Virus record (IMG/VR): IMGVR_UViG_3300032235_000792
Length of the DNA: 64,000 nucleotides
Strand: one strand, 5' to 3'
From: a virus
The notes under the pieces are model-generated. The model searched no databases, was not told the origin of the DNA, and saw only the letters and a list, made by a program, of their open reading frames with translations. Positions 25,282 to 43,261 of this stretch are shown one piece after another. Position 1 is the stretch's first letter; each line of letters begins with the position of its first letter. The position numbers and the translations under genes were made by a program.

Positions 25282-25288
25282 GTATAAT
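25282..25288 (+). promoter_or_regulatory. GTATAAT -10, probable leaderless transcript
   Basis: 8 nt before ATG 25297, no SD. Confidence 0.7.
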
Positions 25289-25296
25289 ATGTAAGC

Positions 25297-25869
25297 ATGG
25301 AAAACCTAACGTCTTTACCGCTAAGGCAAGTTCCTTACGAATCATTTATAGAAGTAGACAGCGTCTTCTCCCCTGAAGAGTGCAGTTTTTTAATAAAAAA
25401 AATAAAAGACAACGTTTCTATTTCTACTGTAGATGGTGGATTTGTAAATAAAGAAATACGTAGTAGTAAGTCTTTTTTTATAGATAGAGGCGGAGAATTT
25501 GAATGGGTATTCGAAAGAGTTTGGCACTATATGAGGTTAGTCAATTTAGAATTTTATAATTTTGATTTAGCCTGTTTTAGAGAAGGAATTCAATTTAGTC
25601 AATACGATGCAGGCGATTTTTATAATTGGCACAAAGACTACGGCCCTTTAAATTTTTCAACGAGAAAATTATCTGGCGTAATAAATCTGTCTTCTCCAGA
25701 GGAGTATTCCGGTGGAGAACTTGAACTATTTAGAGTATTAAAGCAACCTCAAAAGAGTCAGGGCAACTTGATAGTGTTTCCTAGTTTTGAGCAGCATAGA
25801 GTAAATAATATAGTTAGCGGAACTAGGTACAGCTTAACCACCTGGATCTCAGGCAACTGCTTTAGGTAA
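25297..25869 (+). CDS. 2OG-Fe(II) oxygenase (prolyl 4-hydroxylase-like)
   Basis: WHKD...RKLS...YSGGEL...VFPSFEQHRV...TRYSL: HxD...H facial triad and RxS. Confidence 0.9.
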   Translation: MENLTSLPLRQVPYESFIEVDSVFSPEECSFLIKKIKDNVSISTVDGGFVNKEIRSSKSFFIDRGGEFEWVFERVWHYMRLVNLEFYNFDLACFREGIQFSQYDAGDFYNWHKDYGPLNFSTRKLSGVINLSSPEEYSGGELELFRVLKQPQKSQGNLIVFPSFEQHRVNNIVSGTRYSLTTWISGNCFR

Positions 25870-25872
25870 ATT

Positions 25873-26484
25873 ATGATAGTTAACTTTAACACTGATCCAG
25901 TACCTTATTTAATAATAGATAACTTCTTAGATAACTTTAATGAAGTATCAGATATAGCAGAAGATCTTTATTATCTAACAGACTTAGGTACACATAATCT
26001 TTATGTTAAAGACCTAGTTAAAAGAAACGAATTTTATCTATATAGTCGAATTGAAGATCCTAATGTAAAAAAATTAGCAGAACACATGAACTGTGCTTTT
26101 TGGAGAGAGTCTGTCAGAGAGATATATGACAGTGCACCATATCCGTTTCCAATGATAAACTCTGTTACCTACGATGGCCTTTTAATAGGTTACTACGGCA
26201 ATAGCGGATACTACAGTTTACATAGAGATACCTGTTTTATAACAGGACTAGTCTTTCTTCATAAAGAGGTAAATTTCGAAGGTGGTAATTTTATTCTTTC
26301 AAATAAAACAGAGAGAACTATAAATAAAGAATTTAAGTCTGTAGAAATAGAACCAGTCTCAAATAGAGCAGTGTTTTTTCCTTCTTGCTATTTCCACGGA
26401 GTTTCCAGTATCAAAACCAATAGCGATGAAATATCTTCTATGCGAATAAGTTTTCAAAATTTTATGTCTTTTAAGAACGACTAA
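25873..26484 (+). CDS. 2OG-Fe(II) oxygenase
   Basis: LHRD...FEGGNF...NRAVFFPSCYFHGV...RIS. Confidence 0.85.
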   Translation: MIVNFNTDPVPYLIIDNFLDNFNEVSDIAEDLYYLTDLGTHNLYVKDLVKRNEFYLYSRIEDPNVKKLAEHMNCAFWRESVREIYDSAPYPFPMINSVTYDGLLIGYYGNSGYYSLHRDTCFITGLVFLHKEVNFEGGNFILSNKTERTINKEFKSVEIEPVSNRAVFFPSCYFHGVSSIKTNSDEISSMRISFQNFMSFKND

Positions 26485-26486
26485 TT

Positions 26487-26768
26487 ATGAATAAATTAAT
26501 ATTTAGAGTATATAGAACTTCAACGTTTCTTTTTGGTCATAGGCCAGAAAACAATAGGTCATACTTAGCTTTAAAGAAGAGATTAGATGACAAGTGTTCA
26601 TTAGAAAATTGGTTTATAGATTTTAAAGACCATACTGATGTGCTTAATTTTGCACTTGAATACTCACCTGTTTTAATAAAAAAACCAACATATCATGGCA
26701 CTGTTGGTGATATAGAGATATATGACTGCGAAAGAGAAAATCTAAGCATAGATTTAACGGTAAATTAA
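26487..26768 (+). CDS. Hypothetical protein
   Basis: 93 aa ORF tightly packed in the operon. C-terminal IEIYD motif. Confidence 0.55.
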   Translation: MNKLIFRVYRTSTFLFGHRPENNRSYLALKKRLDDKCSLENWFIDFKDHTDVLNFALEYSPVLIKKPTYHGTVGDIEIYDCERENLSIDLTVN

Positions 26769-26770
26769 AT

Positions 26771-27073
26771 ATGTTTAAAAAATTAAATAAATATGGCATC
26801 CCATTTCCAATGATAAGAGATCCTAGAACAGGATTAGGGTCTGTATCTTTAACCTTAGTTTTTTTGTCTAGTATATACGTACAATTGGCTCTTTTAAATA
26901 TGTTCGCACAAATGTTTAAAGGTGTAGATATAGTTAATGCCCTCTATTGGCACGGCATGAGTTTAGCACTTTACTTTGGAAGATCTTTTAAGAAAGAAGG
27001 TGATGTGTCTTTGGATGCGGAAGAAACGACAGAGGAGACACCCAAGAAAAGATCTAGGATGCCTCCAAAATAA
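26771..27073 (+). CDS. Holin-like two-TM membrane protein
   Basis: Two hydrophobic segments and a highly charged C-terminus. Confidence 0.5.
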   Translation: MFKKLNKYGIPFPMIRDPRTGLGSVSLTLVFLSSIYVQLALLNMFAQMFKGVDIVNALYWHGMSLALYFGRSFKKEGDVSLDAEETTEETPKKRSRMPPK

Positions 27074-27078
27074 TCATG

Positions 27079-28338
27079 TCAGATCGTAGTGCTGTCTGAA
27101 TAGTACACTGGCAAAGCTTTGCAGATATCAATAACTTCTTGTTTTAATTTTTTTGCAACATCTAAATCTCCAGCATTCTTCAAGCAAGTAATAATCAGCC
27201 TAGCGACTTCTTTCATCTCTTGCTCTTTAAATCCACGAGTAGTTAAAGCTGGAGTACCTAAGCGAATACCTGATGTAACGAATGGGGATCGCTTGTCTCC
27301 TGGAACCATATTCTTATTACAAGTAATACCGATGTGTTCTAGGTAGTTAGAGGCATCTTTACCTGACATGTTAAAGCTATCTGTTTTAGCTAAGATAAGA
27401 TGATTGTCAGTCCCACCGCTAACAACCGCAAGTCCTCCGGCTATAAGTTCTGTTGCCAAGACTTTAGCGTTAATAATAACCTGCTGCTGATATGCCTTAA
27501 AATCTTCAGATAGTGCTTCCTTAAATGCCACAGCCTTAGCAGCAACAACATGTTCGAGAGGTCCACCTTGAATGCCAGGAAAAATATTACTGTTCACTTT
27601 CTTAGCGATGTCTTCGCTATTTGTGAGTATGATTCCGCCCCGTGGTCCTCTCAGTGTTTTATGTGTCGTAGATGTTACAACATCTGCCAAGCTAACTGGA
27701 TTCTGGTGCAGTCCTGCAGCAATTAGACCAGCAATATGTGCCATATCTACCATTAGATATGCACCAACTTCATCTGCAATATTTCTAAATTTCTCAAAAT
27801 CAATTGATCTTGGGTATGCAGATGCACCAGCAATAATTAGCTTAGGTTTTTCTTTAATAGCAATATTTCTTATGTTATCATAATCTAAAACTTCAGTAGA
27901 TTCATCAACACCATAAAAACTAGTAGCAAATAGTTTACCAGAAAAATTAACTGGACTTCCATGAGTAAGATGTCCACCTTGACTTAAGTCCATGCCTAAG
28001 ATTTTGTCTCCACTGTTTAGTAGTGAAAAATATACTGCCATGTTTGCAGAAGATCCAGAGTGTGGCTGTACGTTAGCGAACTTACTTCCAAATATTTGAT
28101 TTAGCCTAGATATAGCGAGTGCTTCGATCTCGTCAACAATATCACAACCGTTGTAATACCTTTTACCGGGATAGCCTTCTGCATACTTATTTGTAAGGAT
28201 CGATCCTTGCGCTTCCATTACTGCTTTAGAGCAATAGTTTTCAGAAGCAATAAGCTCTAACCCTAGTTCTTGTCGTTGAGATTCTAGTTGTATAAGTTTA
28301 TGTATTTCTGAATCAGATGAATCAAGATTACTGTTCAT
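27079..28338 (-). CDS. glyA: Serine hydroxymethyltransferase
   Basis: [45 protein letters not shown] (PLP lysine), SGIRLGTPA. Confidence 0.98.
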
Positions 28339-28348
28339 GTTTATCCTT

Positions 28349-29215
28349 TTAGTTTATGGTTTTTATTGATTTAAGAAAAATCGTAGCAGTGTCTCTGTGT
28401 CCGTTGTTTTTAAGTACATCGTTCCAGTCCATATCTGTATCGCCGGTAACAGCATAGTGAGTTATAGCTTTAGCCTTATTCAATTTACTAAGTCCTTTCA
28501 AGCCTGCTTCATCAGAGTCAAATGCACACACTATCTTAATGCCTGCATCTTTTAGTTCCAGCAATTTATCGATCTGGTGCTCAGTAGTTCCACAACCAGA
28601 GGTAGCGACTGCCTTCCATGGATTCTTAAGAACTCCACCGTAAAGTTTATCTAAAGATTGCTGAATAGATAGGGCATTAAATGCACCCTCACAAACAATT
28701 AAGCCTTTTATGTTAGTAACAAAAGGATTCTGGTTCCAGTTATAAAAAACAAGACCGAGACGTGTACCGGGTAGAGTAAGGACTTTAACAGTATCGCCAT
28801 CTCGCTCCCAAGGTTCTATTAGTCTAGTTTGTGAACCAACAAATACAGAGTCAAAATAATATGGAAAAACTATGCCTTCGCGCTCAGTATCATAGTACAT
28901 ATCACCTTTTGGATCAAGTCCTCGTGACCTAATGTATTCGACTCCTTTAATAGCCCTTGGATCAGATAGCGGTAAGAAATGAGAAGGCCAGTCCAAACGA
29001 GAAACCTCATTTGGTGTGGCTTTCGTCATATCAAAATCACCTTTAAGAAACTCGTTCAGATCCACGCCAGCAGTGTGGCAGTACTCTCTTAGAGAGTAAC
29101 CTCGTTGACATCTACCACTACACCAGCACCATATAGCTCCAGTATCTTCGTCTGAATGCCAGTAGATAGTATCATTAGGTCTTTTACAAATCAAGCATTT
29201 CTTGGTATTCACCAT
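28349..29215 (-). CDS. DNA primase (Zn finger + TOPRIM)
   Basis: CLIC...C.C...C Zn-binding region. [10 protein letters not shown] and [14 protein letters not shown] motifs. DWND. Confidence 0.85.
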
Positions 29216-29290
29216 TGTGTAGTCCTAATTTTCTTAACGTAAAAATAATATCTATTTTTAGACCAATTACAAAAAATGGATCAGACTTTT

Positions 29291-29722
29291 TCATAATTTA
29301 AACCTATTGATCCAATCGAAAAAATTAACTTGAGCTTGATCTTCAGATCTAAACATTAAATAAAGCAATGGGTGATCCATTAGCTCAGATCGTTTTAGAC
29401 CTTTAGTGTAGTGTATATACTCTTTTCTTGTCATCTGTCGCGTGTCCATAAGGTATTTATTTACTATATTACCACCGAATATTTTCTGAAGATCTTCTAG
29501 CGATGAGGTGGCACTTGTGGTACTGTTTTCGGAAGATCTTTCTGTTGTATTACTTCTAGCTTCAGCAATGTCATCCACAGCCTTCTCTTCGTTATTATCA
29601 ATATCTTCTGATGCGTCAACCCTCTGATTTTCGACATAACTGAGTTCCTTTGCTTTACCTGTTATCTCTGCTAATTTTTGAAGAACTTCATCTTTACTCA
29701 TAAATATTAATTGTTGCGTCAT
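29291..29722 (-). CDS. Hypothetical protein
   Basis: ATGA overlap with the helicase stop. In the replication operon. Confidence 0.6.
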   Translation of the reverse strand: MTQQLIFMSKDEVLQKLAEITGKAKELSYVENQRVDASEDIDNNEEKAVDDIAEARSNTTERSSENSTTSATSSLEDLQKIFGGNIVNKYLMDTRQMTRKEYIHYTKGLKRSELMDHPLLYLMFRSEDQAQVNFFDWINRFKL

Positions 29723-30741
29723 TCTTCATCTCCGTTATAACCTACCTGAGAAAGTAGACTAGTTAGTTTTTCTTGTTTAACCTTTTCCATATGATTTGCA
29801 GTGATCTCAACGTATCTACCTTTATCAAAGGCGCATTCAATCTTCATACCTTGATAACCAAAACGATCTTTCTTTATTAAGAACTTAGTGGTCTTGTTTT
29901 CAAAGTCAGGCACGATTTCTACTACTACAGTTGATGGCTCGTATACACTCGGACAATCCTTTATTCGAGAATCAAGTTCTTGATTATTTCTTTTTCCAAG
30001 AGAGTGAAGCTGAGCAAACAATACCACAGGAATATTCGACTCGCGTATGTATTTACCTAGCCACATTCTTAAATCAGTTAAAGTCTCAAAACTACTTCTA
30101 GCCGGATTATTTACAGATGTTTTTATTTGCTGAAAATAATCAATCATAACGGCAGAATAATCTGCGGTTTTTACCTGAGTAAGTATGTTCTTAACACCTT
30201 CTAAGGTAGATGTTATTCCGTTGTTATAAACGACATCTACAACCTTAACGTATTTACATATCTCAGGGTAGAGTTTCATACATTCTAGCTGCTGAGATTT
30301 AGGCATTACGCCTTTTTTGTAGTCGTTAAAATTAAACCCAAGCTCAAGACATGCAATACGATATATGATATCTTGCTTTGGTTCTTCGTTAGATATAACC
30401 AGCGTCTTCTTGCCTTCTTTCCATAATGGGTGAGATATGTTCGCAGCAATAGTAGACTTACCATTACCAGAATAACCGCACATAAGATAAAGATTTTCTC
30501 GTGTAAACGGAATTGCAGCTGTCAACGCCTTGTTGATAAAAGTAATCTTTTCACCAAGCATCCTATTATAAGATGCAACACTTTCATACATCTCTTTAAT
30601 AGATTCTTTATCACCGAAAGAATCTAGCTCATCTAACGATACTTCGATATTGATATCAGTAATCGGTTGAACAGAATTTTTAGTACGACTAGGTGTTGCA
30701 GACAATGCTTTGGCAATTTCTTGCTCAGATAGTTTTGCCAT
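29719..30741 (-). CDS. DnaB-like (SF4) replicative helicase
   Basis: GYSGNGKS Walker A, ISNEE, VMIDYFQ, VLFAQL, KDRFG arginine finger. Confidence 0.9.
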   Translation of the reverse strand: MAKLSEQEIAKALSATPSRTKNSVQPITDINIEVSLDELDSFGDKESIKEMYESVASYNRMLGEKITFINKALTAAIPFTRENLYLMCGYSGNGKSTIAANISHPLWKEGKKTLVISNEEPKQDIIYRIACLELGFNFNDYKKGVMPKSQQLECMKLYPEICKYVKVVDVVYNNGITSTLEGVKNILTQVKTADYSAVMIDYFQQIKTSVNNPARSSFETLTDLRMWLGKYIRESNIPVVLFAQLHSLGKRNNQELDSRIKDCPSVYEPSTVVVEIVPDFENKTTKFLIKKDRFGYQGMKIECAFDKGRYVEITANHMEKVKQEKLTSLLSQVGYNGDEE

Positions 30742-30742
30742 A

Positions 30743-31255
30743 TTATAGATCTCCTAGGTCAATGTTTACGTTAACATGACTAGGGTCAACACTCGGTCCT
30801 TTTTCTGATGCCTGCTGCTCAAGAATAAGAGCCTCCCAATCTAATGTAGGGTGCGAATCTGCATATTTCTGTTGTTTTCTATATTCAGATGCAGACATAC
30901 TGCCATATTTAGGAGCAGAATCAGATTCGGCATTTTCTATTTCATAGATAGAAAAGAAAACACGTTTGCCAGCGTTAGCTATAAATTCTTTCCAAGAAGA
31001 TTCAAATTCAGACAATGTTTCAATTCTTCCAAATTTCTTCATGCTTTTATATACAGACTTAACAACATAATCAGATGGATAATGAGCTTTAATAGCTTTC
31101 TCTAAATAGACTAAAGCATCTTCCATAGGAACTTTGGACTTGTTCATTGAATGAAAGAGTATATCAAAGTTGCCTTCAACTGCAGCTTTAGATCTGTCCA
31201 TGTCAGCAAGGTCAGCCTTCCACTTCATAAAGATAAGTTCAGCTTTACTACTCAT
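30743..31255 (-). CDS. Hypothetical protein upstream of helicase
   Basis: SD GGAGG precedes ATG 31255 (MSSKAELIF). Confidence 0.65.
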   Translation of the reverse strand: MSSKAELIFMKWKADLADMDRSKAAVEGNFDILFHSMNKSKVPMEDALVYLEKAIKAHYPSDYVVKSVYKSMKKFGRIETLSEFESSWKEFIANAGKRVFFSIYEIENAESDSAPKYGSMSASEYRKQQKYADSHPTLDWEALILEQQASEKGPSVDPSHVNVNIDLGDL

Positions 31256-31445
31256 GGCTAACCTCCAAGACTTCAGTCTTCTTGGATTTAAGGTTAGTAA
31301 TCTCAATTTTGGCAGAATTATTTATCTTGTCAATAAATAATAGTCGGATTTCGTACTCTCCATTGATAATGAAAGGTTTTTTCTTACCTAACCACCATAC
31401 GAGAGTATCTTGAAGCTTGTCCTTAAAACTAGACATGTTTTCCAT
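31248..31445 (-). CDS. Small beta-strand protein, possibly CsrA/RsmA-like
   Basis: SD AGGAG. LVWWLGKKKPFIINGEYEIRLLFIDKINNSAKIEI parallels the CsrA strand pattern. Confidence 0.45.
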   Translation of the reverse strand: MENMSSFKDKLQDTLVWWLGKKKPFIINGEYEIRLLFIDKINNSAKIEITNLKSKKTEVLEVSHE

Positions 31446-31515
31446 AGAACTCCTAAAAAACGTTTAATAAAAAATCGTATATATTTTATACGAATATATG
31501 AATTTTAACTATTAA

Positions 31516-31522
31516 GTATAAT
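31516..31522 (+). promoter_or_regulatory. GTATAAT -10, probable leaderless transcript
   Basis: 6 nt before ATG 31529, no SD. A divergent minus-strand TAAAAT lies at 31483-31488. Confidence 0.75.
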
Positions 31523-31528
31523 AGATAA

Positions 31529-32905
31529 ATGAAGGCGATCATCACTAATAAATTAATCGTTATCCAAAATCCAACAGACGATATTGTACGAACGTTTGAG
31601 AAAATATGCTCTTTCACCGATAAGCAAAAAGAGTTTCAAGTTAAGCGGATGGAGCGAAATCCTTTTCAGAAAAATTCACCTTTCTTAAATAAGTTAAGAA
31701 AAGAAGTAAATGGTTCTTTGCTTAAAAGAATAACAGGCGGTCATCTAGTCTTTAATTCAGGCTTACATTTTTATTTACCTGACTTATCAATAACAGATAA
31801 AAGACAAGATACCGGCAGTACTATGGCTTTGCCTTGGAAGAAAAAGCCGCATGACCCTAGGCCATATCAAGAAGAAGCTATAGAAGTAGCAATCAATTCT
31901 TGGCGCGGAGTTATAAACTTTGCAACTGGCTTAGGTAAGACTTTAACTGCTTTACATCTTTTAAAGAGATTAAAAAGAAAAGCACTTGTAGTAGTTCCTT
32001 CTGAGAGTATAGCAAATCAATTTTATAAAGAACTGTCTGATGCTTTTGGTGATGCTAATGTAGGATACTTTGGCGGTGGAAAGAAAAAGATAAAGTTTAT
32101 AACAGTAGGTATTGCTGCATCTATTATAAATAATCTTGATAAGTTTAAAGAGCAAGAATTAGGTGTTGTCATATTTGATGAGGTTCATCATATAGCTGCA
32201 AATACATTCTATGATATCTCTATTGCTCTTGGAGACGTTGGAAGAATTTACGGACTAACCGCCACTGACTTTAGATCAGACGGAAAAGATATAATGATAA
32301 ATGCGGGGTGCGGCCCAGTAATAGTTAAAAGAGACATCAAGTGGGGCATAGCAAATGGGTTTTTGGCTAAACCTAAATTTATAATTACAGAGGTGGACAC
32401 CGAAGGCACCGACTACCAAAATGATAAACTTAAAAATTATAAAGCACATGTCTTAAATAATGACAAGATGAAGAATCAAATTAAATCTGATATACAAAAA
32501 TATTTAGCAGAAGGTAAATCAGTTCTCTGCTTAGTAGGTGAGGTTGCACATGGAGAAGAGTTATCCAAAGATTTGGGAATACCTTTTGCCCAAGGAAGAG
32601 ACAAAGAATCTCAGCGGTATGTGGACGAGCTTAACTCTGGAAAAATCAAAGGACTTATTGGAACAGGGGGTAAGGTCGGAGAGGGTACAGACACCAAGCG
32701 GGTTGATGTTCTTATACTTGCAAACTTTATGGCGTCTAAAGGTCCTGTCATTCAAGCAATTGGAAGAGGTCTGCGCTTGTATGGGGATAAGACTGAATGT
32801 ATCATCAAGGACTATGTACCTAAGGGTTCGAGTATGCTGTCCCGTCACGCAAAAGGTAGACTTATATTTTATAGAGACATAACTAACGATATAAGTTTCA
32901 CTTAA
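31529..32905 (+). CDS. Superfamily 2 DNA helicase (UvsW-like)
   Basis: PRPYQ Q-motif, ATGLGKT, DEVHH, GLTAT, QAIGRGLR. Confidence 0.92.
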   Translation: MKAIITNKLIVIQNPTDDIVRTFEKICSFTDKQKEFQVKRMERNPFQKNSPFLNKLRKEVNGSLLKRITGGHLVFNSGLHFYLPDLSITDKRQDTGSTMALPWKKKPHDPRPYQEEAIEVAINSWRGVINFATGLGKTLTALHLLKRLKRKALVVVPSESIANQFYKELSDAFGDANVGYFGGGKKKIKFITVGIAASIINNLDKFKEQELGVVIFDEVHHIAANTFYDISIALGDVGRIYGLTATDFRSDGKDIMINAGCGPVIVKRDIKWGIANGFLAKPKFIITEVDTEGTDYQNDKLKNYKAHVLNNDKMKNQIKSDIQKYLAEGKSVLCLVGEVAHGEELSKDLGIPFAQGRDKESQRYVDELNSGKIKGLIGTGGKVGEGTDTKRVDVLILANFMASKGPVIQAIGRGLRLYGDKTECIIKDYVPKGSSMLSRHAKGRLIFYRDITNDISFT

Positions 32906-32944
32906 GTTAATAAAATGATATAATATAGTCATAGGGGCAACTTT

Positions 32945-33397: not shown

Positions 33398-33398
33398 T

Positions 33399-33656
33399 AT
33401 GTCTAGTCTAACTATTCCAGAATTAAGTGTAGGAATGGTTGTTATAACACCAACTACATTAATGCCTTATCTTACAGAAGATAAGAAATATGTTGTTCTG
33501 GCTATGGATAGTGACGACTGGATCCTAATACAGGATGACACTGGTGAGACTAGACACTATCAATCACATCTTTTTATAGAAGCAAATGTTTACTATTCTA
33601 TGGTTCTTTGGTTATCGTTAATGAGAATGTTCGATATTTCGCCTAAAGACATGTAA
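33399..33656 (+). CDS. Small SH3-like hypothetical protein with hydrophobic tail
   Basis: YLTEDKKYVV...ILIQDDTG pattern. Confidence 0.5.
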   Translation: MSSLTIPELSVGMVVITPTTLMPYLTEDKKYVVLAMDSDDWILIQDDTGETRHYQSHLFIEANVYYSMVLWLSLMRMFDISPKDM

Positions 33657-33691: not shown

Positions 33692-33778
33692 GTATAATGA
33701 CCATGACTGCCGACTATACTAGTCTAGTACTGTTCATAACTATTCTAAACTACATGTTGTTTTATTTATATGTATAAT
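33692..33778 (+). promoter_or_regulatory. Tandem GTATAAT elements at 33692 and 33772
   Basis: Both are in the gap between annotated genes upstream of the dUTPase. Confidence 0.65.
33703..33777 (+). CDS. Putative 24-aa hydrophobic micropeptide MTADYTSLVLFITILNYMLFYLYV
   Basis: Translated by eye. It fills the gap between two GTATAAT elements. Confidence 0.35.
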   Translation: MTADYTSLVLFITILNYMLFYLYV

Positions 33779-33798
33779 CCCTCCACCTAGGAGGCGAC

Positions 33799-34236: not shown

Positions 34237-34251
34237 TTTATTAACTAGTGA

Positions 34252-34258
34252 GTATAAT
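34252..34258 (+). promoter_or_regulatory. GTATAAT -10, probable leaderless transcript
   Basis: 6 nt before ATG 34265, no SD. Confidence 0.75.
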
Positions 34259-34264
34259 TAATAA

Positions 34265-34969
34265 ATGGATATAAGTAATCTATTTTCTACCAATATTCGT
34301 GTGTCAAACGTTGATCCATTGGATACTAATGCTATCTGGCCAAATAACATTGAAGTAACTATTTGTCGGATTCCTATAAGGAAGCGTGACGGATATTCTA
34401 AAGATGGTGTTAGAAAACTGGCTGAAAGGTTGAAAGCTAATACTGTTAAAAATGGTATAGTTTTTCTTATCTGCTACTCTCCTAATGAATGTAAGTCTAG
34501 GCCTTTTGAAGTTGCTAGCATAATGTCTGAAGTTGGATTTGAACATATTGACAACATCATACTTAATAAGTCTTGGCTACCTGGCAAAAGAAGTGAATCA
34601 AATCTTGTTAATTCTCATGAATATGTTCTTTACTTCTGTAATGGAAAAGTGTGGAAGTTAGATAGGCTACCTTTAAAACAATACTTAAAAATAGATGATG
34701 AACAAAGTTGCCCTGGCAATTCTTGGACTATAGAAACAGGCTCGTTAGAGGATTCGTATCCTCTAGATTTAGCTGAGTTACTAATCCGCATGACGGATGT
34801 GCTTCCTGGTTCTGTTATCTTTGATGCGTACATGGGGACTCCAGCTACCTTGCAGGCTTGTCTAAAGCTTGGACATTCATTTTATGGATTTGAAACTGAT
34901 CCTAGAAAACTAATTAAATATAAAAAAATAATAAGTGATTTTCAGCAAAATAAACCGGAGGACAAATAA
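34265..34969 (+). CDS. N4/N6 DNA methyltransferase-like protein, degenerate motifs
   Basis: HEYVLYF, YPLDLAELLI, IFDAYMGTPAT...G.SFYGFE. The catalytic (D/S)PP(Y/F) position reads CRIPI. Confidence 0.7.
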   Translation: MDISNLFSTNIRVSNVDPLDTNAIWPNNIEVTICRIPIRKRDGYSKDGVRKLAERLKANTVKNGIVFLICYSPNECKSRPFEVASIMSEVGFEHIDNIILNKSWLPGKRSESNLVNSHEYVLYFCNGKVWKLDRLPLKQYLKIDDEQSCPGNSWTIETGSLEDSYPLDLAELLIRMTDVLPGSVIFDAYMGTPATLQACLKLGHSFYGFETDPRKLIKYKKIISDFQQNKPEDK

Positions 34970-36639: not shown

Positions 36640-36640
36640 T

Positions 36641-37108
36641 ATGAATTATATACGTGAAAAAATTAGAATAATAATTGCAGGCCTTGTCTTGGTATGTGTC
36701 GGTTTTGGTATTGGCTTTTTTAGTAAACCTACTAAGGTTACGACAAAAACTGAGATAAAAGAAGTTGTTAAATACGTAGAAAAAAAACAAGAGCGCAAAA
36801 ATGTCAAAACTACTAAGAAAAAAATTATCAAAAAAGATGGAGAAGTTGTTGAAGAAGAGGTCACAGAAGATAAATCTGAAACAGATACTGAACTGTCCTC
36901 TTCTTCTAAAAAAGAATCAAAGAAAGAAGAGAAAAAGATAAACAACTCTGGTATCACTCTTAGTGCATTAATTTTAGCCAGAGATTTATCTGTTGATGAA
37001 TACGAATTTGGTGTGGCTTTTTCTAAACGTGTTTTTAGTAATATATCTATGGGCGTTATTGCAACAGAAAAGAAAGCAGTTGGACTAACTATAGGTTTGG
37101 AATTCTAA
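36641..37108 (+). CDS. Membrane-anchored protein (possible spanin-like)
   Basis: N-terminal TM, charged linker and C-terminal amphipathic beta strands ending in F. Confidence 0.45.
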   Translation: MNYIREKIRIIIAGLVLVCVGFGIGFFSKPTKVTTKTEIKEVVKYVEKKQERKNVKTTKKKIIKKDGEVVEEEVTEDKSETDTELSSSSKKESKKEEKKINNSGITLSALILARDLSVDEYEFGVAFSKRVFSNISMGVIATEKKAVGLTIGLEF

Positions 37109-37461
37109 TGCCAAAATACACGTTTTCTTGTTTTAAATGTGGTAAGCTAATTCAGAAGTATGTCTCTGCGTCGCAGAGATTTAACGAATGTGAATGCGGT
37201 CAGGTAGTTGAGAGAAACATGCCAACCATATCTGGCACCAAAACTACAGAAACTGTAGATAAGTTACTTAATCGGAAGCACGTAGATAATCAAGTTGGTG
37301 CTTTGAAAGAAAGAAAATTAGACTATTACTGGGAAGTCGAGGTTCCTAGGATGGTAGATTCTGGTATCTATTCTATAGAAACTATGTTAGAGCAGGGTTG
37401 GATTTTCTATAATGAAAAAGGCGAACTCACTACCAGAACCAAGCCGGTTCAAAAATCTTAG
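37108..37461 (+). CDS. FmdB-family zinc-ribbon protein
   Basis: MPKYTFSCFKCG...CECG. Confidence 0.8.
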   Translation: MPKYTFSCFKCGKLIQKYVSASQRFNECECGQVVERNMPTISGTKTTETVDKLLNRKHVDNQVGALKERKLDYYWEVEVPRMVDSGIYSIETMLEQGWIFYNEKGELTTRTKPVQKS

Positions 37462-37467
37462 TATAAT
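37461..37467 (+). promoter_or_regulatory. GTATAAT -10 overlapping upstream TAG, probable leaderless transcript
   Basis: 6 nt before ATG 37474, no SD. Confidence 0.7.
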
Positions 37468-37473
37468 TCTGCA

Positions 37474-37905
37474 ATGAAGCAGAAAAATTCTTTAAAATTA
37501 CTATTACTTAGTTTAGTCATTAGTTCATTACTACATTTTTTTTTCATATTAAAATACAGGTACACTGCTACTGACCCTGTTCAAAGTGAACAACACCAAT
37601 CTAGAAATCAAGATCCACCGCAAGATCTAGACGACGGCAAAACTTCAATCTGGGTTAGTCCTGGCGTAGTTCCATGTGATTCTTATGAGGGAATAGGCGT
37701 TCAGTTTAATGCTATAACTGGTATTGTGACACATGTTGCTAGTAATGCACCTGCTGATAAAGCTGGTTTGCAAATTGGAGATGAACTTGTTACCCCACTT
37801 TGGAGCATGGAACTGGCTTTTGGTCAAAAAATTGATTTAGTTATTGTAAGAGATGGCAAGAGGCTTACTATGCCAGTAATTGTAGATAGGATCTGTCATC
37901 AATGA
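37474..37905 (+). CDS. Membrane-anchored PDZ-domain protein
   Basis: N-terminal TM. YEGIGV...VTHVASNAPADKAGLQIGDEL...IVRDGK. Confidence 0.85.
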   Translation: MKQKNSLKLLLLSLVISSLLHFFFILKYRYTATDPVQSEQHQSRNQDPPQDLDDGKTSIWVSPGVVPCDSYEGIGVQFNAITGIVTHVASNAPADKAGLQIGDELVTPLWSMELAFGQKIDLVIVRDGKRLTMPVIVDRICHQ

Positions 37906-39668
37906 AATTAATTAAAGTAGATATAAATAATATATTGTCTATTGAAAATGCTGAAGTAATATTTGGCGATACAGGGTTGGTTTTAGTTGAGGGACACGAT
38001 TATGACACAGGTCGCGCAAATGGCGCCGGAAAGTCTGCTATATTTAACGCTATTTCGTTTGCTCTGTATGACCGTATCCCAAGAAGAATTACTAAATCTG
38101 AAATCGTTAGAAAAGGTGCAAAAGACGGATCTTGTTGTGTTACGTTGGGCGTTGATGATCGAGTATTCAAGGTTAAAAGGTCTAGACCCACATTAGTTGA
38201 GTTTTTTATAGATGACGTCAAAGTCGATATGACTCAAGAAGAGTTTGAGTCTAAGATTGGCTTAAACTATGACCAATTCGTATTAACTATGTACAATCCG
38301 CAAGATTCTAATGAACGTTTTCTTACGCTAAACGATTCTGATAAGAAAAATTTCTTATTGAAGATAATGAATCTTAATAAGTTTAATTCTGCCAAAGATA
38401 CAGTTTCAGAAAAAATAAAGGATCTTTCTCAGCAGAGACTAATGATCCTCTCGAAGATAGAAACATATAAATCTAATATTAAGATCTACAAAGAGTCTCT
38501 AATTGACCCCACTGTTGTTCAACTGAGCATTGATCAGATAAATAGGGACATTGCTGCATATAACAAGGCTATAAAAGAATTAGAAAAGGTATTAGAGCCT
38601 GATTTGTCGAAATATGCAGAAACTGAATCTAAGATTCAGCAGAAGATCATATCTTTTGCTACAGCGAACGCTAATAGATCAGATGAGCTTAAGAAGTATA
38701 GAACTCTTGAGGCCAATTTAAAGCCGTTTGATCCTAGAAAACCAGATGCTTCGTGTCCAGTTTGCCGCGTGGAATTAAACATACAGGGCAAAACTCTAGC
38801 CAAAGTTGATGATATTGAAGCTTTAAAGCTGCAACATAACGCACATCAAGAAGAAATAAAATCAGAGATGTTGATAGTAAAACAGAACATAGATAAATAC
38901 GATACAATTTTGTCTAAGCAAGATGAAGTTAATGCACTTGTTAATAAAATAAAAAATAAAAAACAAGAAGAATATAGAGATTATAGAGACGCTCAATCTA
39001 GTATATTTGAATATAAAAATTCGATATCCATTAAAAACTCTCAATTAGGTGCACTAAATTCTCAGTTAGATAAAAATAACGACATCAAAGACAAGATACA
39101 AGAAATAGTAAATAATACGAAAAATCTTAACGATAAGCTAGAGGGAGTAGATCTTGAACTGTCAATTCTCGGAGCTGTGGACTCGATTTTCGATTCAACT
39201 GGTGCTCCTGCTTATATTATTGATTGCATCATCGATCTTATTAATGAGGCTGCTTCTTCAAATATTTGTGACATTTGGTCTAATGCTTCTTACACCATTA
39301 AGACTTATAAAGAGAATAAAGATAAAACGGTAAAGGCAAAAATATCAGAATCTTTAGTAATAGACGGGTCAGAGAGATCGATTGGTTCACTTTCTGGAGG
39401 TGAATTTAGGGCTCTTTCTCTACTTCTTGATTTTGCCATAATTGATGTACTAGGCTCTCAGTACAACGTGAACATAAATCCTATAATACTAGATGAACCA
39501 TTTGACGGCCTAGATAATCTAGGCAGAGAATTAATCATAGACCTACTGTCTAAAATCTCTCAAACTAGACAGATATGGGTAGTTGATCATGCATCTGAAG
39601 CCAAAAGTCTGTTTAATCAAGTAGTTAAAGTTGAAAAACGAAATGGCATATCTAATATAATTCAATAG
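37902..39668 (+). CDS. sbcC: SbcC/Rad50/gp46-like recombination ATPase
   Basis: NGAGKS, CPVC zinc hook, LSGGE signature, ILDEPFDGLD. Confidence 0.93.
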   Translation: MKLIKVDINNILSIENAEVIFGDTGLVLVEGHDYDTGRANGAGKSAIFNAISFALYDRIPRRITKSEIVRKGAKDGSCCVTLGVDDRVFKVKRSRPTLVEFFIDDVKVDMTQEEFESKIGLNYDQFVLTMYNPQDSNERFLTLNDSDKKNFLLKIMNLNKFNSAKDTVSEKIKDLSQQRLMILSKIETYKSNIKIYKESLIDPTVVQLSIDQINRDIAAYNKAIKELEKVLEPDLSKYAETESKIQQKIISFATANANRSDELKKYRTLEANLKPFDPRKPDASCPVCRVELNIQGKTLAKVDDIEALKLQHNAHQEEIKSEMLIVKQNIDKYDTILSKQDEVNALVNKIKNKKQEEYRDYRDAQSSIFEYKNSISIKNSQLGALNSQLDKNNDIKDKIQEIVNNTKNLNDKLEGVDLELSILGAVDSIFDSTGAPAYIIDCIIDLINEAASSNICDIWSNASYTIKTYKENKDKTVKAKISESLVIDGSERSIGSLSGGEFRALSLLLDFAIIDVLGSQYNVNINPIILDEPFDGLDNLGRELIIDLLSKISQTRQIWVVDHASEAKSLFNQVVKVEKRNGISNIIQ

Positions 39669-39683
39669 TTTACCTATGGATTA

Positions 39684-39692
39684 TGGTATAAT
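39684..39692 (+). promoter_or_regulatory. Extended -10 promoter TGGTATAAT
   Basis: Intergenic, upstream of 39734. Confidence 0.75.
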
Positions 39693-39733
39693 TAAGTACT
39701 GAAGGAGTACGCTGTCTAACAGCTAATTATGCC

Positions 39734-41137
39734 ATGAGTAAGTCTATTAAGGAACTCTTAGAGGAAGTGAATTTAGAGCTAGATATAAGCTCTGAATATT
39801 CTTATGAGTTTCACTCTGAATTAATAAAAAATCAAGGCTCATCTAGTATCATGCTTAATAAATTCAAGAGCATGCTCAATCAGACTAACGACCCTGCCAA
39901 GCAGCGAATACTTAAAGACATGATCTCCAAGGAAGAAGTTAGACTAAAGAAAGAACAAGAAGATTCTGCTAAAAAAGCAACAGAAGAAAAAGCATCTAAA
40001 GAGAAGACTTTAGCAGAACAGGCTGAAGATAGAGAGAAATTAAAAAATACTCGTATGCTATCCTCTCCTCAAGAGTGGGAAGAGCAGAAGGCCATGGAAA
40101 GCCTTGTTGAAGACCCATCTATGGCATCTGAAGTTGCTGCACAAAGAAGACAAAATACAAAAGATTGGTTTAAGCAAAAGTATCCAAAAGTATTCGCAGA
40201 CAAAGAAAATAGAAAAAAAGCTCTTCAAGACATGGAAGACAGAGCTGCTGCTGAAAAAGAGAAGTCTAAATCTTACGATAAGGCAGTAGAGCAACATGAC
40301 CCGGAGTCTCGTCCTGCACATGCTACTAAAAAGAGGAGCGCATCTAGAATAATTCAGATGGGTGAAAGAAAAGGCGCAATGGAGAGAAAGTTTATAAATA
40401 GAGAGCAAGGCGCTGATCCAAAGCCTGAATTAAAAAACAAAATGGATGCAGAGCAGATAAGTGCTGTAAAAGACATAGTTGGAAAACCAAAAAAATCTGT
40501 AACATCAACTTCCGCTGATTACGATAAATTCAAGACACCCTCACCAGAAGACAGGATTGTTAGTCAAATTAAGTCTGGATCGCCTCAAGAAAAGATTGCT
40601 GCATTAAAGGCGGCACGACAAAAATTGATGGGATCAAGTTCTCAACCAGGACCGTCTGCACCTCAGATAACTCCAGAGGTTAAAAAATCATCTGATAATT
40701 TTGATTCTCTAGTCGATAAGTTAAATAACTTAAAAAAGGGAATGGCTAACTCTGGATTAGGTGGATTTGGAAGTGTTAAAGCAGGAGCGGTCCTTCCTAA
40801 TAAAATTTCCATCCCTAAGTCTAGTAATAATTCTGCTGCATCTAAAGTTAAAATTCCTAATGTTGCCCCTCAAAGTAAGAAAGATCCAATGAGATCAATT
40901 GCTCAAACTCAAAACAAAGATATTAAAGATCTTAAGATGAAAGAGGCTAATGCTCACTTTGATAATCAAGTTATTAAATATGATACCAATGGACAGTGGA
41001 ATCTTGAGAAAAGATGCTGGGAAGGGTATGAACCAGTCCCTGGTAAAAAAGCTTATTCTGAAGATTCTTGTAGGCCAGTAAAGAAGAAAAAATCTAAGAA
41101 CAAAAGTCGATCATCTAAGGTTGATGATAGAAAATAA
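39734..41137 (+). CDS. Probable internal head/virion protein
   Basis: Low complexity, Lys-rich, several LxK-[NSGR] motifs, C-terminal CWEGYEPVPGKK motif. Confidence 0.5.
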   Translation: MSKSIKELLEEVNLELDISSEYSYEFHSELIKNQGSSSIMLNKFKSMLNQTNDPAKQRILKDMISKEEVRLKKEQEDSAKKATEEKASKEKTLAEQAEDREKLKNTRMLSSPQEWEEQKAMESLVEDPSMASEVAAQRRQNTKDWFKQKYPKVFADKENRKKALQDMEDRAAAEKEKSKSYDKAVEQHDPESRPAHATKKRSASRIIQMGERKGAMERKFINREQGADPKPELKNKMDAEQISAVKDIVGKPKKSVTSTSADYDKFKTPSPEDRIVSQIKSGSPQEKIAALKAARQKLMGSSSQPGPSAPQITPEVKKSSDNFDSLVDKLNNLKKGMANSGLGGFGSVKAGAVLPNKISIPKSSNNSAASKVKIPNVAPQSKKDPMRSIAQTQNKDIKDLKMKEANAHFDNQVIKYDTNGQWNLEKRCWEGYEPVPGKKAYSEDSCRPVKKKKSKNKSRSSKVDDRK

Positions 41138-41145
41138 AAGGGCAA

Positions 41146-41283
41146 ATGAAATATCTACATGAAAAAGAATATCAGTTGCATTTTGTTAAGCTTATATGTG
41201 CATTAATAATATTATCTGAACTAAAAAGAAAAACTGTAACTAAAGAATACGACAAACTAAGCTTTAGGAACGTACTTAATTAG
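41146..41283 (+). CDS. 45-aa hypothetical protein (not in ORF track)
   Basis: SD-like AAGGG precedes ATG. MKYLHEKEYQLHFVKLICALIILSELKRK... Confidence 0.4.
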   Translation: MKYLHEKEYQLHFVKLICALIILSELKRKTVTKEYDKLSFRNVLN

Positions 41284-41291
41284 TTTACTAA

Positions 41292-41298
41292 GTATAAT
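41292..41298 (+). promoter_or_regulatory. GTATAAT -10 for phoH
   Basis: Intergenic, upstream of SD AGGAG. Confidence 0.65.
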
Positions 41299-41322
41299 TT
41301 GATTATAACTTAGGAGCACTAG

Positions 41323-42603
41323 TTGAATAAAAAATTCGTATTAGATACCAATGTCATACTTTCAGACCCTCTCTGTATATACAAATTCGAAGACAATGAA
41401 GTACACATCCCCTTAATAGTTATTGAGGAAGTAGATAAGCATAAGAAAGGTCAAGAGGAAAAAGCCAGAAATGCCAGGACTTTTTCTAGAGAAATAGATG
41501 TATTGCGAGAGCAAGGTAAGTTGTCAGAGGGTGTAGAGTTAAGAAATGGTGGAAAACTTTTTTTAACTGTAGTAAAAGAAGCTGACGACCTACCTTTAGG
41601 TCTTGACTTAAAAATAAATGATGACTTGATATTGTATACTGCGTTTAAAATTGGAGCAGTTGTTGTATCTCAGGACCTTAACGTCAGGCTTAAGGCTGAT
41701 GCAATAGACGTACCTGCTGAAAATTATGAGGCTGGTAAAGTAAAAGTAGAAAACGATATTCTATATTCTGGTTATAAAGTTGAGTTCTTTACAACAGATG
41801 ATATGTCTGATTTTAGGTCATCTAGGTTTCTTGCGTTTGAGAATGAATTTGATAATGAATACATTATTTTGAAAGACGAAGGGAATCCTAAAAGTTCAGC
41901 TCTAGGCAGATATTCTAAGGCAAAAGGTGGCATTGTTCCGCTCATAGCCTCAGACAATACTTGGGGAATAAACCCTAAAAATGCAGAACAAAGATTTGCA
42001 TTAGACGCTCTTCTTAACGATGATATCAAGCTTGTTTCATTAATTGGAAAAGCTGGAACTGGTAAGACGCTACTTGCGGTAGCGGCAGGTTTGACCAAAA
42101 CTATAGAGTCTGGCACATACAAGAGAATGCTTATCTCGAGACCCGTCGTTCCAATGGGTAAAGATATTGGATATCTACCTGGCGATATAAAAGAAAAGCT
42201 AGATCCTTGGATGCAGCCGATTTATGACAACCTTGATCACTTATTTGGTGAACACGGAGAAGATAACCAACAATGGAAAGGACTTCTTGAGAGAGGTCTC
42301 ATTAAGATAGAGGCACTTACATACATAAGAGGTAGATCTATCCCATCTCAATACTTAATCGTAGATGAGGCCCAGAACCTTTCCCCACACGAGATCAAGA
42401 CTATTGTAACTCGAGTTGGTGAAGGCACCAAGGTGGTTCTTACTGGTGACACTGATCAAATTGATAGTCCTTACTTAGATGCTATCAACAATGGTCTAAC
42501 ATACGTAGTAGACAGGTTGAAGCGTGAGGATATCGTTGCCCATGTTGAACTCAAGAAAGGCGAACGATCTAAGCTAGCAGATATAGCTACTAAGTTGCTC
42601 TAG
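41323..42603 (+). CDS. phoH: PIN-PhoH (PhoH2-type) protein
   Basis: VLDTNV PIN motif, GKAGTGKT, YIRGRSI, IVDEAQNL, TGDTDQID. Confidence 0.95.
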   Translation: MNKKFVLDTNVILSDPLCIYKFEDNEVHIPLIVIEEVDKHKKGQEEKARNARTFSREIDVLREQGKLSEGVELRNGGKLFLTVVKEADDLPLGLDLKINDDLILYTAFKIGAVVVSQDLNVRLKADAIDVPAENYEAGKVKVENDILYSGYKVEFFTTDDMSDFRSSRFLAFENEFDNEYIILKDEGNPKSSALGRYSKAKGGIVPLIASDNTWGINPKNAEQRFALDALLNDDIKLVSLIGKAGTGKTLLAVAAGLTKTIESGTYKRMLISRPVVPMGKDIGYLPGDIKEKLDPWMQPIYDNLDHLFGEHGEDNQQWKGLLERGLIKIEALTYIRGRSIPSQYLIVDEAQNLSPHEIKTIVTRVGEGTKVVLTGDTDQIDSPYLDAINNGLTYVVDRLKREDIVAHVELKKGERSKLADIATKLL

Positions 42604-42609
42604 TATAAC
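42603..42609 (+). promoter_or_regulatory. GTATAAC variant -10 overlapping phoH stop, possible leaderless transcript
   Basis: 7 nt before ATG 42617. Only a weak GAG is present as a possible SD. Confidence 0.5.
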
Positions 42610-42616
42610 TAGAGCA

Positions 42617-43261
42617 ATGAAGGCACTTATCATAGACCCAGCTAATTCAACTGGGTATTGCATATTAGATTTCGACGAACTGACTCAAATTGCTGAGATT
42701 ATAGATTGGGGATTCATAGACGTAGATCAACATAACTATGCTGGTGATCAGTATATTGATCTAATAAGTAAAATAGAACATTTAATTGTTAAGCACAATA
42801 TAAATAGAGTAGCTATCGAAGATTATTTCTTTAATCAAAGATCTGCCCAAGGATCTACTTTAAACTGCGCTTATAGAGCCGTTATTCACTTAAAATGTAG
42901 ACAGCTTGGCTTGCACTATGATATTCTAAATATCTCACTTTGGAAAAGTTTCGTAAATGGTAGAACAACGCCTACTAAAGATCAAAAAGCAAAGTGGGGT
43001 AAAGAACCTGCAAAGAAATTAATGACACAAGAGTCTCTATATAAGCGATGGCAGATAAGATTCCCTAATCATTCCATATCTAATCTGACTAACAAACCTA
43101 TAAAATTTAGATATGATATAGTTGATGCTGTTGGTATGACTGTGTTTTTTGCTAGCATACATCTCCATGCAAAAATGATCAAGTATAGTATTCCTGTGAA
43201 CGACATTGAATGGAAAAAAGAGCCTAAGGGCACATATGAATATGGAGGAAATAATGGCTAA
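42617..43261 (+). CDS. RuvC-like Holliday junction resolvase
   Basis: LIIDPANSTGY, VAIEDY, DIVDAVG acidic catalytic motifs. Confidence 0.8.
   Translation: MKALIIDPANSTGYCILDFDELTQIAEIIDWGFIDVDQHNYAGDQYIDLISKIEHLIVKHNINRVAIEDYFFNQRSAQGSTLNCAYRAVIHLKCRQLGLHYDILNISLWKSFVNGRTTPTKDQKAKWGKEPAKKLMTQESLYKRWQIRFPNHSISNLTNKPIKFRYDIVDAVGMTVFFASIHLHAKMIKYSIPVNDIEWKKEPKGTYEYGGNNG

Follow-up and report, generated by a model that had tools for sequence, protein, structure and literature searches.

A conserved -10-only promoter class with probable leaderless gene starts in a family of large uncultured phages

Boxes and start codons in the window

The window analysed here is a 64,000-nucleotide stretch of viral DNA (IMG/VR record IMGVR_UViG_3300032235_000792). 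On its + strand, the box AGTATAAT was found at 25281..25288, 8 nt before the ATG at 25297 of a 2OG-Fe(II) oxygenase gene (25297-25869), and at 31515..31522, 6 nt before the ATG at 31529 of a ResIII/DEAD helicase gene (31529-32905). The same box was located at 34251..34258, 6 nt before the ATG at 34265 of an N6_N4 methyltransferase-like gene (34265-34969) that is followed by groEL, and at 37460..37467, 6 nt before the ATG at 37474 of a gene for a membrane/PDZ-like protein (37474-37905) that is followed by sbcC. At the fifth site, the variant box AGTATAAC, with the hexamer TATAAC, lies at 42602..42609 (+) and ends 7 nt before the ATG at 42617 of the RuvC gene (42617-43261). The original prediction had given these five distances, and re-measurement returned the same values, confirming the spacing pattern. 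The longer word AGTATAA(T/C) was common to all five sites. A sixth leaderless-type start, which the prediction had not listed, was found at 57849..57856 (+), where AGTATAAT ends 6 nt before the GTG at 57863 of a 54-aa gene (57863-58027). Across the whole window, 10/10 copies of AGTATAAT were on the + (coding) strand. Five of the 12 + strand AGTATAA(T/C) sites sit 6-8 nt upstream of the first ATG of a long ORF, with a chance estimate of about 6e-11.

Shine-Dalgarno (SD) strength was scored as the duplex energy with the anti-SD, for which random 20-mers gave a median of -2.15 kcal/mol. The five sites in order scored -0.6, -0.9, -3.0, +0.7, and -2.1 kcal/mol, and by this scoring no SD match preceded any of the five ATGs. 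The 52 other starts in the window had a median of -5.45, with 58% at or below -5. The claim that the five sites lack an SD while most other genes carry one was thus borne out. In none of the five frames does another possible start precede the ATG, an in-frame stop lying 3-33 nt before it, and no SD-equipped in-frame start was found downstream of them. Over their first 25 nt, the predicted leaderless mRNAs had a median MFE of -0.05 kcal/mol, although the contrast with SD-led genes was weak (p = 0.03-0.19). Among these sites, significant structure was detected only at 42617, where the box lies within a perfect 10-bp inverted repeat (42595-42617; dG -17.2, z -4.9).

Conservation in relatives

We collected 105 distinct upstream regions from orthologues of the helicase, the methyltransferase, and the phage sigma factor; counts over this set are phylogenetically non-independent. 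A G-TAnAAT box stood 6-10 nt before the start in 72/105 regions and at exactly 6 nt in 50, and the spacing seen in the window was kept in dozens of orthologues. All 72 box-adjacent regions started with ATG, compared with 10/33 of the others (Fisher 1e-15, uncorrected for relatedness), and the SD energy reached -5 at only 3/72 of the box-adjacent starts. The other 33 regions were mostly SD-bearing, and 23 of them started with TTG or GTG. The restriction of box-adjacent starts to ATG agrees with the known AUG need of leaderless mRNAs (PMC8459731, PMC9031893). In the window, the GTG at 57863 was the only non-ATG exception.

The three gene families differed in how often the layout occurred. The helicase had the box 6-8 nt before the ATG in 49/60 distinct regions (40 at exactly 6), and the sigma orthologues had a box-adjacent start in 9/9, at exactly 6 nt in 8, usually with TATAAC as the box. 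For the methyltransferase, the box was 6-10 nt before the ATG in 14/36 distinct regions, and in the other 22 this box preceded an SD-bearing leader of 16-22 nt, 16 of them starting with TTG or GTG. The spacer letters varied between relatives while the spacer length was kept, and the layout was retained in orthologues down to 46% protein identity. In distant relatives, the divergent region between the helicase and a 65-aa gene carried boxes back to back, 4-6 nt apart.

Single genes behaved similarly. In the relative G002, the PDZ-like orthologue was preceded by TATAAA + 6 nt and the RuvC orthologue by GTATAAT + 6 nt. The 54-aa protein at 57863 and its G002 orthologue shared 70% identity from residue 1, and the two genes had the box, 6-nt spacer, and GTG in common. 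At the position of the PDZ promoter, the relative G005 carried AAGGAG within an 18-nt spacer, and the 108-aa ORF that follows is a positional candidate for the PDZ counterpart. The gene at 61269 follows a GTATAAT box (61245..61251, +) by 17 nt, with a weak AGGAA SD; in its G002 orthologue, the box-to-ATG distance is 9 nt and an SD is absent, which amounts to a change of layout from one relative to another. No informative orthologue of the oxygenase at 25297 was found. This site is the weakest of the five, because it has no informative orthologue and an 8-nt spacer, and a start 7 nt after the box would leave a 2-nt leader.

The pattern might instead have arisen by chance in intergenic DNA that is rich in AT. 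G+C makes up 36-37% of the genome, TATAAT by itself shows no over-representation (81 observed vs 95 expected), and TATAAT + 6 nt + ATG also occurs inside genes at 46483 and 52958, where it looks like chance. However, when the window and four relatives were pooled, the distance from TATAAT to the ATG opening a long ORF had a sharp peak of 17 cases at 6 nt, other distances having about 1-3, and 0/19 permuted hexamers exceeded 9 at any distance. The orthologue comparison down to 46% identity refuted a chance origin, to which we assign a negligible probability.

Promoter class and predicted transcription start

The consensus of the promoters is T-T-R-G-TATAAT, in which the third hexamer position is free and no -35 element is needed. 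The G at -13 was conserved in 72/72 regions, with a purine (R) at -14. The box variants (TATAAT, TAGAAT, TAAAAT, and TACAAT, plus TATAAC and TATAAA) fit a TAnnnT-type -10 hexamer of the sigma70 family. No -35 element was found, 66 aligned promoters being without information upstream of -16, and a sigma70-type promoter scan detected 0/5 sites. The extended -10 TG at -15/-14 was absent; the conserved G lies one position off the TGn register.

The same promoter type also heads SD-led genes in the window. It was found on the + strand at 33772..33798 before the dUTPase gene (start 33799), at 41292..41298 (GTATAAT), 24 nt before the TTG at 41323 of PIN-PhoH, at 55871..55877 (GTATAAT), 18 nt before the ATG at 55896, and at 5104..5110 (GTATAAT) before the gene at 5141. 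On the - strand, a GTATAAA box (31485..31491) forms the divergent promoter of the 65-aa gene (31445-31248), which has a 39-nt leader and an SD. Boxes similar to the one at 5104..5110 were present at 17874-17880, before the gene at 17914, and at 52741-52747, before the gene at 52766. Some boxes lay directly 3' of terminator hairpins or of another box; the box at 55871..55877 directly follows a terminator-like hairpin, so that a -35 element would not fit in between. The leaderless-type share of this promoter class was about 40% (6/15 in the window and 11/27 in G002), and the remaining promoters had leaders of about 5-32 nt with a strong SD.

The SD-led promoters of the class were informative about the start of transcription. 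A purine stood at position 7 after the box in 21/27 of them, compared with 42% at positions 1-6 (p = 2e-4), which suggested that transcription would start at the A of the ATG wherever the box is followed by 6 nt. In G005, a tRNA also begins directly after box + 6 nt. Sigma factors are encoded within the phage family and have region 2 of the sigma70 family, and the sigma genes of relatives carry the G-TAnAAT promoter themselves. The box could be read by the host primary sigma or by a phage RpoD-like sigma without region 4.

A polymerase starting at another distance, for example directly after the box, would instead give 6-10 nt leaders and SD-led mRNAs with a 5' hairpin. Such a start would make sense of the pairing between the 6-7 nt after the box and the SD in many SD-led members, which is sensible if these bases are transcribed, and the G at -13 without a TGn extension is non-canonical for sigma70 in a family that has its own sigma factors. 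However, the hexamer varies like a -10 of the sigma70 family, with TA and AAT kept and the third position free, and region 2 of the phage sigmas belongs to that family. The purine enrichment lies at position 7 and not at positions 1-2, and SD-less 6-nt leaders would not explain the strict ATG rule. We regard a start at another distance as quite improbable.

We consider it likely that this promoter class is used by a whole family of uncultured phages of about 165 kb and that the genes with an ATG 6 nt after the box are leaderless. An RNA polymerase with a sigma70-family factor would start at the purine 7 nt after the box, and a box 6 nt before the ATG would then yield a transcript beginning with AUG. 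The ribosome may bind this 5'-terminal AUG directly, with no need for an SD, and several genes are probably translated from mRNAs without a leader. Of the original proposal of leaderless mRNAs, the -10 behaviour, the spacing, the SD absence, and the ATG use proved to be conserved; the start of the transcript at the AUG, the ribosome pathway, and the identity of the sigma are what we infer from sequence. As a counterweight, the box of the site at 42617 is TATAAC, which is weaker and is embedded in a strong palindrome. Across 385 kb from Bacteriovoracaceae, the candidate host family, TATAAT stood 6 nt before 0/360 long-ORF starts, and efficient leaderless translation in the host is thus unproven.

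Possible tying of translation to the promoter, and known systems

Four of the five genes lie within co-directional arrays, 13-28 nt after the upstream gene and with no terminator between them, so read-through RNAs must exist. The SD-less ATGs might accordingly be translated mainly on such RNAs by termination-reinitiation, 70S scanning, or an AU-rich enhancer, with TATAAT irrelevant to translation or acting as an internal promoter for downstream genes. Besides the array positions, the overlap of the upstream TAG stop with the box at 37460..37467 (stop 37459-37461), and likewise at 42601, would suit this reading. However, the helicase lies in a divergent intergenic region without an upstream same-strand gene, which makes coupling to an upstream gene impossible there, and yet it has the best-conserved 6-nt spacing. 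Coupling also leaves unexplained the fixed distance to a 7-base word and the ATG in all 72 box-adjacent regions, and this word also stands at the head of SD-led units that immediately follow terminators. Translation mainly on read-through mRNAs therefore appears rather unlikely.

An SD-less AUG within an array would be translated efficiently only when the RNA starts at the promoter of that gene. The SD-led members showed a related layout. At 33772-33798, the box is followed by 6 nt (CCCTCC) complementary to the dUTPase SD (GGAGG), and a transcript start 7 nt after the box would leave this masking arm out of the gene's own transcript. In the SD-led members, the pairing of the box-adjacent bases with the SD was stronger than that in all 500 permutations, and the SD-masking layout also occurred in many methyltransferase orthologues.

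Tentatively, and as a possibility that we hold to be less than even, these genes may be translated only from the transcript of their own -10-only promoter, through two interchangeable designs. In the first, a bare AUG would be competent only as the 5' end of an RNA. In the second, an SD, often accompanied by a weak start codon (TTG or GTG), would be hidden in read-through RNA through pairing with an arm located immediately 5' of the transcription start. Orthologues appear to swap between the two designs. The promoters may be read by a phage RpoD-like sigma without the -35-reading region, and the leaderless layout of the sigma gene itself would then possibly give a self-reinforcing switch. The earlier suggestion had been an escape from CsrA-type repression or the use of stress-modified ribosomes. 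Nothing in the window points there, and the candidate CsrA-like 65-aa ORF (31248-31445, -) had no Pfam match at E <= 0.1. Promoter-tied translation is the better-supported explanation.

Designs of this kind have been described in a few other phages, to which the present layout adds a well-conserved case; the Thermus phages phiYS40 and Lalka27a are the closest. These are also large lytic phages, in which many transcripts begin at the start codon itself, at its A or G, from promoters whose -35 element is minimal or absent (PMC3594737 section 4.2.3, bioRxiv 10.64898/2026.04.20.719267). The 5' ends of the Thermus phages were mapped, whereas those described here are deduced from the DNA. Leaderless mRNAs are widely used in the Thermus host phylum (PMC12340547); in contrast, the candidate host family here lacks such a signal, and the phage also uses strong SDs, with only about 40% of these promoters being leaderless-type. 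An increase of IF2 and a decrease of IF3 on infection are reported for phiYS40. The phiYS40 leaderless transcripts belong to the middle/late class. The helicase, RuvC, SbcC operon, and sigma contents found here would fit a pre-late class, but the same box type also precedes structural genes.

[quoted passage not shown] Those of Deinococcus-Thermus, Actinobacteria, and Caulobacter resemble the present sites in a TANNNT with its first T about 12 nt before the start, no SD, and an AUG preference (PMC3160421, PMC12340547, PMC8459731). The present sites differ in their phage gene set, the invariant G at -13, the near-perfect hexamer, and the switching of orthologues between leaderless and SD-led starts. 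Lambda cI expressed from PRM is likewise a phage mRNA that starts with AUG and is translated without an SD (PMC3160421, PMC9031893). However, cI is one regulatory gene only, it belongs to a temperate phage, and its promoter needs an activator, whereas a class of replication, recombination, and sigma genes is concerned here.

In T4, the genes e, soc, 49, and I-TevI can be translated only from RNA made at their proximal late promoter, which lies in or beside a structure that prevents translation of read-through RNA; their own transcript lacks its 5' arm (PMC3014915). This gating layout is common to the SD-led members here, such as that at 33772-33798, but the T4 starts are SD-led and the T4 promoters are TATAAATA elements that depend on gp55. 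Gating by a leaderless AUG would, by analogy, have the same effect as the T4-type structure and is not described for T4. The T4 gp55 late and extended -10 promoters likewise consist of a -10-region word without a -35 element, with phage sigma-like factors; the word here is G-TAnAAT and is neither TATAAATA nor TGnTATAAT.

Leaderless translation has usually been seen as a trait of certain host phyla or of individual repressor genes in phages. The present family of large environmental phages appears to keep leaderless-type starts for core genes (helicase, sigma factor, and recombination genes), in what is probably a host lineage with little sign of leaderless use. These starts persist over deep divergence, beside strong SD sites. 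The natural switching between box + 6 nt + ATG and box + short SD leader + TTG/GTG allows the rules of leaderless initiation to be tested by comparison. Starts of this kind will be missed or wrongly placed by gene callers, and annotation of the phage family can use the G-TAnAAT box as a promoter model. The pattern also suggests that phages use leaderless starts to couple translation to promoter choice.

Box-adjacent start codons in the window

The window has a G+C content of 36-37%, and nearly all of its genes are carried by the + strand. The original prediction of leaderless mRNAs was built on five + strand genes in which a -10 hexamer lies just upstream of the ATG, and the spacings from the end of the hexamer to the ATG were confirmed as 8, 6, 6, 6 and 7 nt. 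According to Pfam, these genes encode a 2OG-Fe(II) oxygenase (ATG at 25297; TATAAT, 8-nt spacer), a ResIII/DEAD helicase (31529; TATAAT, 6 nt), an N6_N4 methyltransferase-like protein (34265; TATAAT, 6 nt), a PDZ-like protein with a weak match (37474; TATAAT, 6 nt) and RuvC (42617; variant TATAAC, 7 nt). The longer word AGTATAA(T/C) was common to all five sites. The accompanying claim that these starts lack a Shine-Dalgarno (SD) sequence also held, with SD energies of -3.0 to +0.7 kcal/mol, whereas the 52 remaining starts had a median of -5.45. Each of the five ATGs is the first possible start in its own frame, and none of the later in-frame starts of these genes carried an SD. The predicted 5' ends were unstructured, although in this respect they differed only weakly from the 5' ends of the SD-led genes.

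The placement of the motif was far from random. On the + strand, 5 of the 12 AGTATAA(T/C) sites stood 6-8 nt ahead of the first ATG of a long ORF, for which the estimated chance is about 6e-11. When the window and four related contigs were pooled, the TATAAT-to-ATG distance of long-ORF openers showed a sharp peak at 6 nt (n = 17), and permuted hexamers gave nothing similar in the same test. All 10 occurrences of the word AGTATAAT in the window were on the coding strand. Four of them belong to the original sites; at 41291, 55870 and 61244 it lies 17-24 nt before SD-led genes, and at 57849 it is followed by 6 nt and the GTG of a conserved 54-aa gene, a case absent from the original prediction. 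An orthologue search with the gene of this GTG case (58027) matched only a fragment of the same phage.

Other features were observed around these boxes. Within 62855-62943, about 90 nt that lack an obvious ORF separate a AGTATAAT box from the next gene, and this stretch may represent a long leader or a small RNA; the TTG start listed at 62944 is probably wrong because AAGGAG sits just inside the gene. A similar arrangement was found near 10944 of G002, a related IMG/VR genome. In two places (37459-37461 and 42601-42603), the word T-A-G-TATAA(T/C) opens with the TAG stop codon that ends the upstream gene. The TAG at 37459 and the ATG at 37474 share a reading frame that has no stop between them, so amber read-through would join both proteins. 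Three related genomes encode a tRNA with the anticodon CUA (amber suppressor) downstream of the helicase gene: G005 (contig L029, 13105-13193, - strand, 2.1 kb downstream), G003 (L023, 4396-4472, - strand, 1.1 kb) and G004 (L028, 4963-5039, + strand, about 5.2 kb). No tRNA was found in the window, and only a tRNA-Met in G002; the latter was rejected as an extra initiator, as its first base is paired and it has two of the three anticodon-stem G-C pairs, judged by eye. In G005, AGTATAAT plus 6 nt leads exactly to the first base of the CUA tRNA, whose transcript may thus begin at the mature 5' end.

Orthologue upstream regions in related phages

A nucleotide search against cultured phages gave no match. 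The closest cultured phage was Myxococcus phage Mx1, with a protein identity of 25-34%, and its helicase context was not comparable because the gene starts 1 nt after the preceding one. Close relatives were found in IMG/VR, including the complete genome G002 (165,836 bp). In these relatives, a -10 box 6-9 nt before the ATG was kept in the helicase, methyltransferase, PDZ-like and RuvC orthologues, while the letters of the spacer varied. Two helicase orthologues had a short SD leader instead, one of them with a GTG start, and the G005 gene at the promoter position matching the PDZ-like gene also had a short leader with an SD. The box-adjacent layout preceded many other genes of the relatives, such as those for a lysozyme, an RNase T-type exonuclease, a NUMOD3 protein and both sigma factors.

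In a deeper comparison, orthologue upstream regions from metagenome and viral contigs were classified and distinct regions were counted. Conservation of the -10-to-ATG spacing, which had been named beforehand as a check on the leaderless class, was evident in this set. For the helicase, 49 of 60 distinct regions had a box 5-10 nt before the start (exactly 6 nt in 40). All 49 used ATG, and the regions without a close box comprised 4 ATG and 7 GTG/TTG starts, 7 with an SD. For the methyltransferase, the close box was present in 14 of 36 regions (exactly 6 nt in 2), again always with ATG; the rest began with ATG (6) or TTG/GTG (16), and 21 had an SD. These 22 regions retained the same box, followed by a 16-22 nt leader bearing the SD. 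The RpoD-like sigma gene had the leaderless-type layout in 9/9 distinct regions (exactly 6 nt in 8), all with ATG. Overall, ATG was used in 72/72 box-adjacent regions versus 10/33 of the rest (Fisher 1e-15, relatedness ignored), and the hexamer was preceded by G in 72/72 box-adjacent regions. Previous studies in E. coli and Caulobacter have reported that leaderless mRNAs require AUG and that as little as a few additional nucleotides at the 5' end inhibit them (PMC8459731, PMC9031893). The observed pattern of ATG use and spacing is the one expected from selection on leaderless translation.

Two sites need separate comment. At 25297, the 8-nt spacer would leave a 2-nt leader. No 2OG oxygenase orthologue was found in the close relatives, and the only homologues, at 36% identity, had no box, so this site is without comparative support. 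At 42617, the TATAAC variant lies within a palindrome, although the orthologue in G002 carries a perfect box with a 6-nt spacer. The palindrome (42595-42617; dG -17.2, z -4.9) is an inverted repeat of two perfectly matched 10-bp arms around a 3-nt loop; it encloses the box, and its last base is the A of the RuvC ATG. In G002 the repeat is much weaker, and in G005 this position has none. Among hairpins sought around each box, only this one was significant, and the other sites were at shuffle level.

Promoter architecture, sigma factors and candidate host

Alignment of 66 promoters yielded the consensus T-T-R-G-TATAAT, with no conserved position upstream of -16, and a standard -35/-10 scan detected 0/5 of the original sites. 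Some boxes come straight after a terminator hairpin or sit back to back with a box on the opposite strand. A purine occupied position 7 downstream of the box in 21/27 SD-led members, versus 42% at positions 1-6 (p = 2e-4), which is the expected mark of a transcription start; in the leaderless-type members, the A of the ATG takes this position. Leaderless genes are generally recognised in genomes by a -10-like signal with its first T 12 nt ahead of the start codon (PMC3160421, PMC12340547). Judging from the sequence, it is likely that most of the sites give transcripts starting no more than 2 nt from the AUG.

The divergent region 31446-31528 holds two boxes: AGTATAAT on the plus strand for the helicase, and GTATAAA on the minus strand for a 65-aa gene, which has an SD and a leader of 39 nt. 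The minus-strand box is overlapped by the palindrome TCGTATA-N5-TATACGA. In distant relatives, the two divergent boxes are just 4-6 nt apart.

The relatives encode two sigma70-family proteins, with genes on the - strand at 18315-19004 (L018) and 9112-9591 (L020) of G002 and at 14973-15671 (L025) of G003. The RpoD-like protein contains regions 1.2, 2 and 3 and stops at the beginning of region 4, and the second contains region 2 only. A sigma factor lacking the part that reads the -35 element matches a promoter that has none. Both sigma genes start 6 nt after a GTATAA(T/C) box; since they carry the same promoter, the host holoenzyme would presumably have to recognise it, initially at any rate.

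The phage glyA (27079-28338, - strand) was 67-70% identical to those of Bacteriovoracaceae, Halobacteriovorax and Bacteriovorax MAGs versus about 60% for other bacteria, and the Bacteriovoracaceae MAGs have the same G+C content as the phage (37.4%). These similarities hint that the host may be a predatory bacterium of this family. In four Bacteriovoracaceae MAGs, TATAAT followed by 6 nt and ATG occurred at 1.1-2.3 times the reversed-pattern control, and 0/360 long-ORF starts in 385 kb of Bacteriovoracaceae MAG DNA had TATAAT 6 nt upstream. The tentatively assigned host thus gave no evidence for this design; if Bacteriovoracaceae is the host lineage, the leaderless class might be the phage's own and not copied from host practice.

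Possible gating of translation by the promoter

The original prediction also proposed that leaderless mRNAs could escape repression by CsrA-type proteins. This proposal gained no support; the 65-aa ORF that had been labelled CsrA-like (31248-31445, - strand) had no Pfam match at E <= 0.1. The SD-led members pointed elsewhere. In many of them, the 6-7 nt immediately following the box can pair with the SD, and this complementarity was stronger than in 500/500 permutations; it is seen at 33772-33798 of the window and in most SD-led methyltransferase orthologues (for example L314, L317 and L335). The arm and the SD change together across orthologues (GCTCC/GGAGC, CCCTCC/GGAGG, CCCCTTA/TAAGGGG). 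With a start 7 nt after the box, the masking arm would be missing from the gene's own transcript and kept in read-through RNA from upstream, where alone the SD would be masked. A masking arm placed in this way has been reported in T4 (genes e, soc, 49 and I-TevI; PMC3014915).

An SD-less AUG would have the same outcome, because it would be a good start only as an RNA 5' end. At 42617, the A of the AUG would additionally be sequestered in the inverted repeat when the RNA comes from read-through. The distinction between own-promoter and read-through RNA matters because 4/5 genes lie in co-directional arrays with no terminator ahead. The four internal genes might instead, though less probably, be translated by re-initiation on read-through RNA, but this would not account for the helicase gene, as it stands at the head of a divergent region. 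That translation is tied to each gene's own promoter is possible, although we consider it rather doubtful at present.

Among known cases, the Thermus phages phiYS40 and Lalka27a, with their leaderless transcripts, come closest (PMC3594737; bioRxiv 10.64898/2026.04.20.719267). Also close are lambda cI and, in Deinococcus-Thermus and Actinobacteria, leaderless genes adjacent to a -10 motif; by contrast, dRNA-seq of phiKZ revealed no leaderless transcript (PMC8244752). The design is of a known type, and its conservation here is unusually good. What goes beyond earlier descriptions is the alternation of orthologues between a leaderless ATG and an SD-led TTG/GTG layout, together with a possible link to promoter-gated translation, in which a gene would be translated only on RNA begun at its own promoter.
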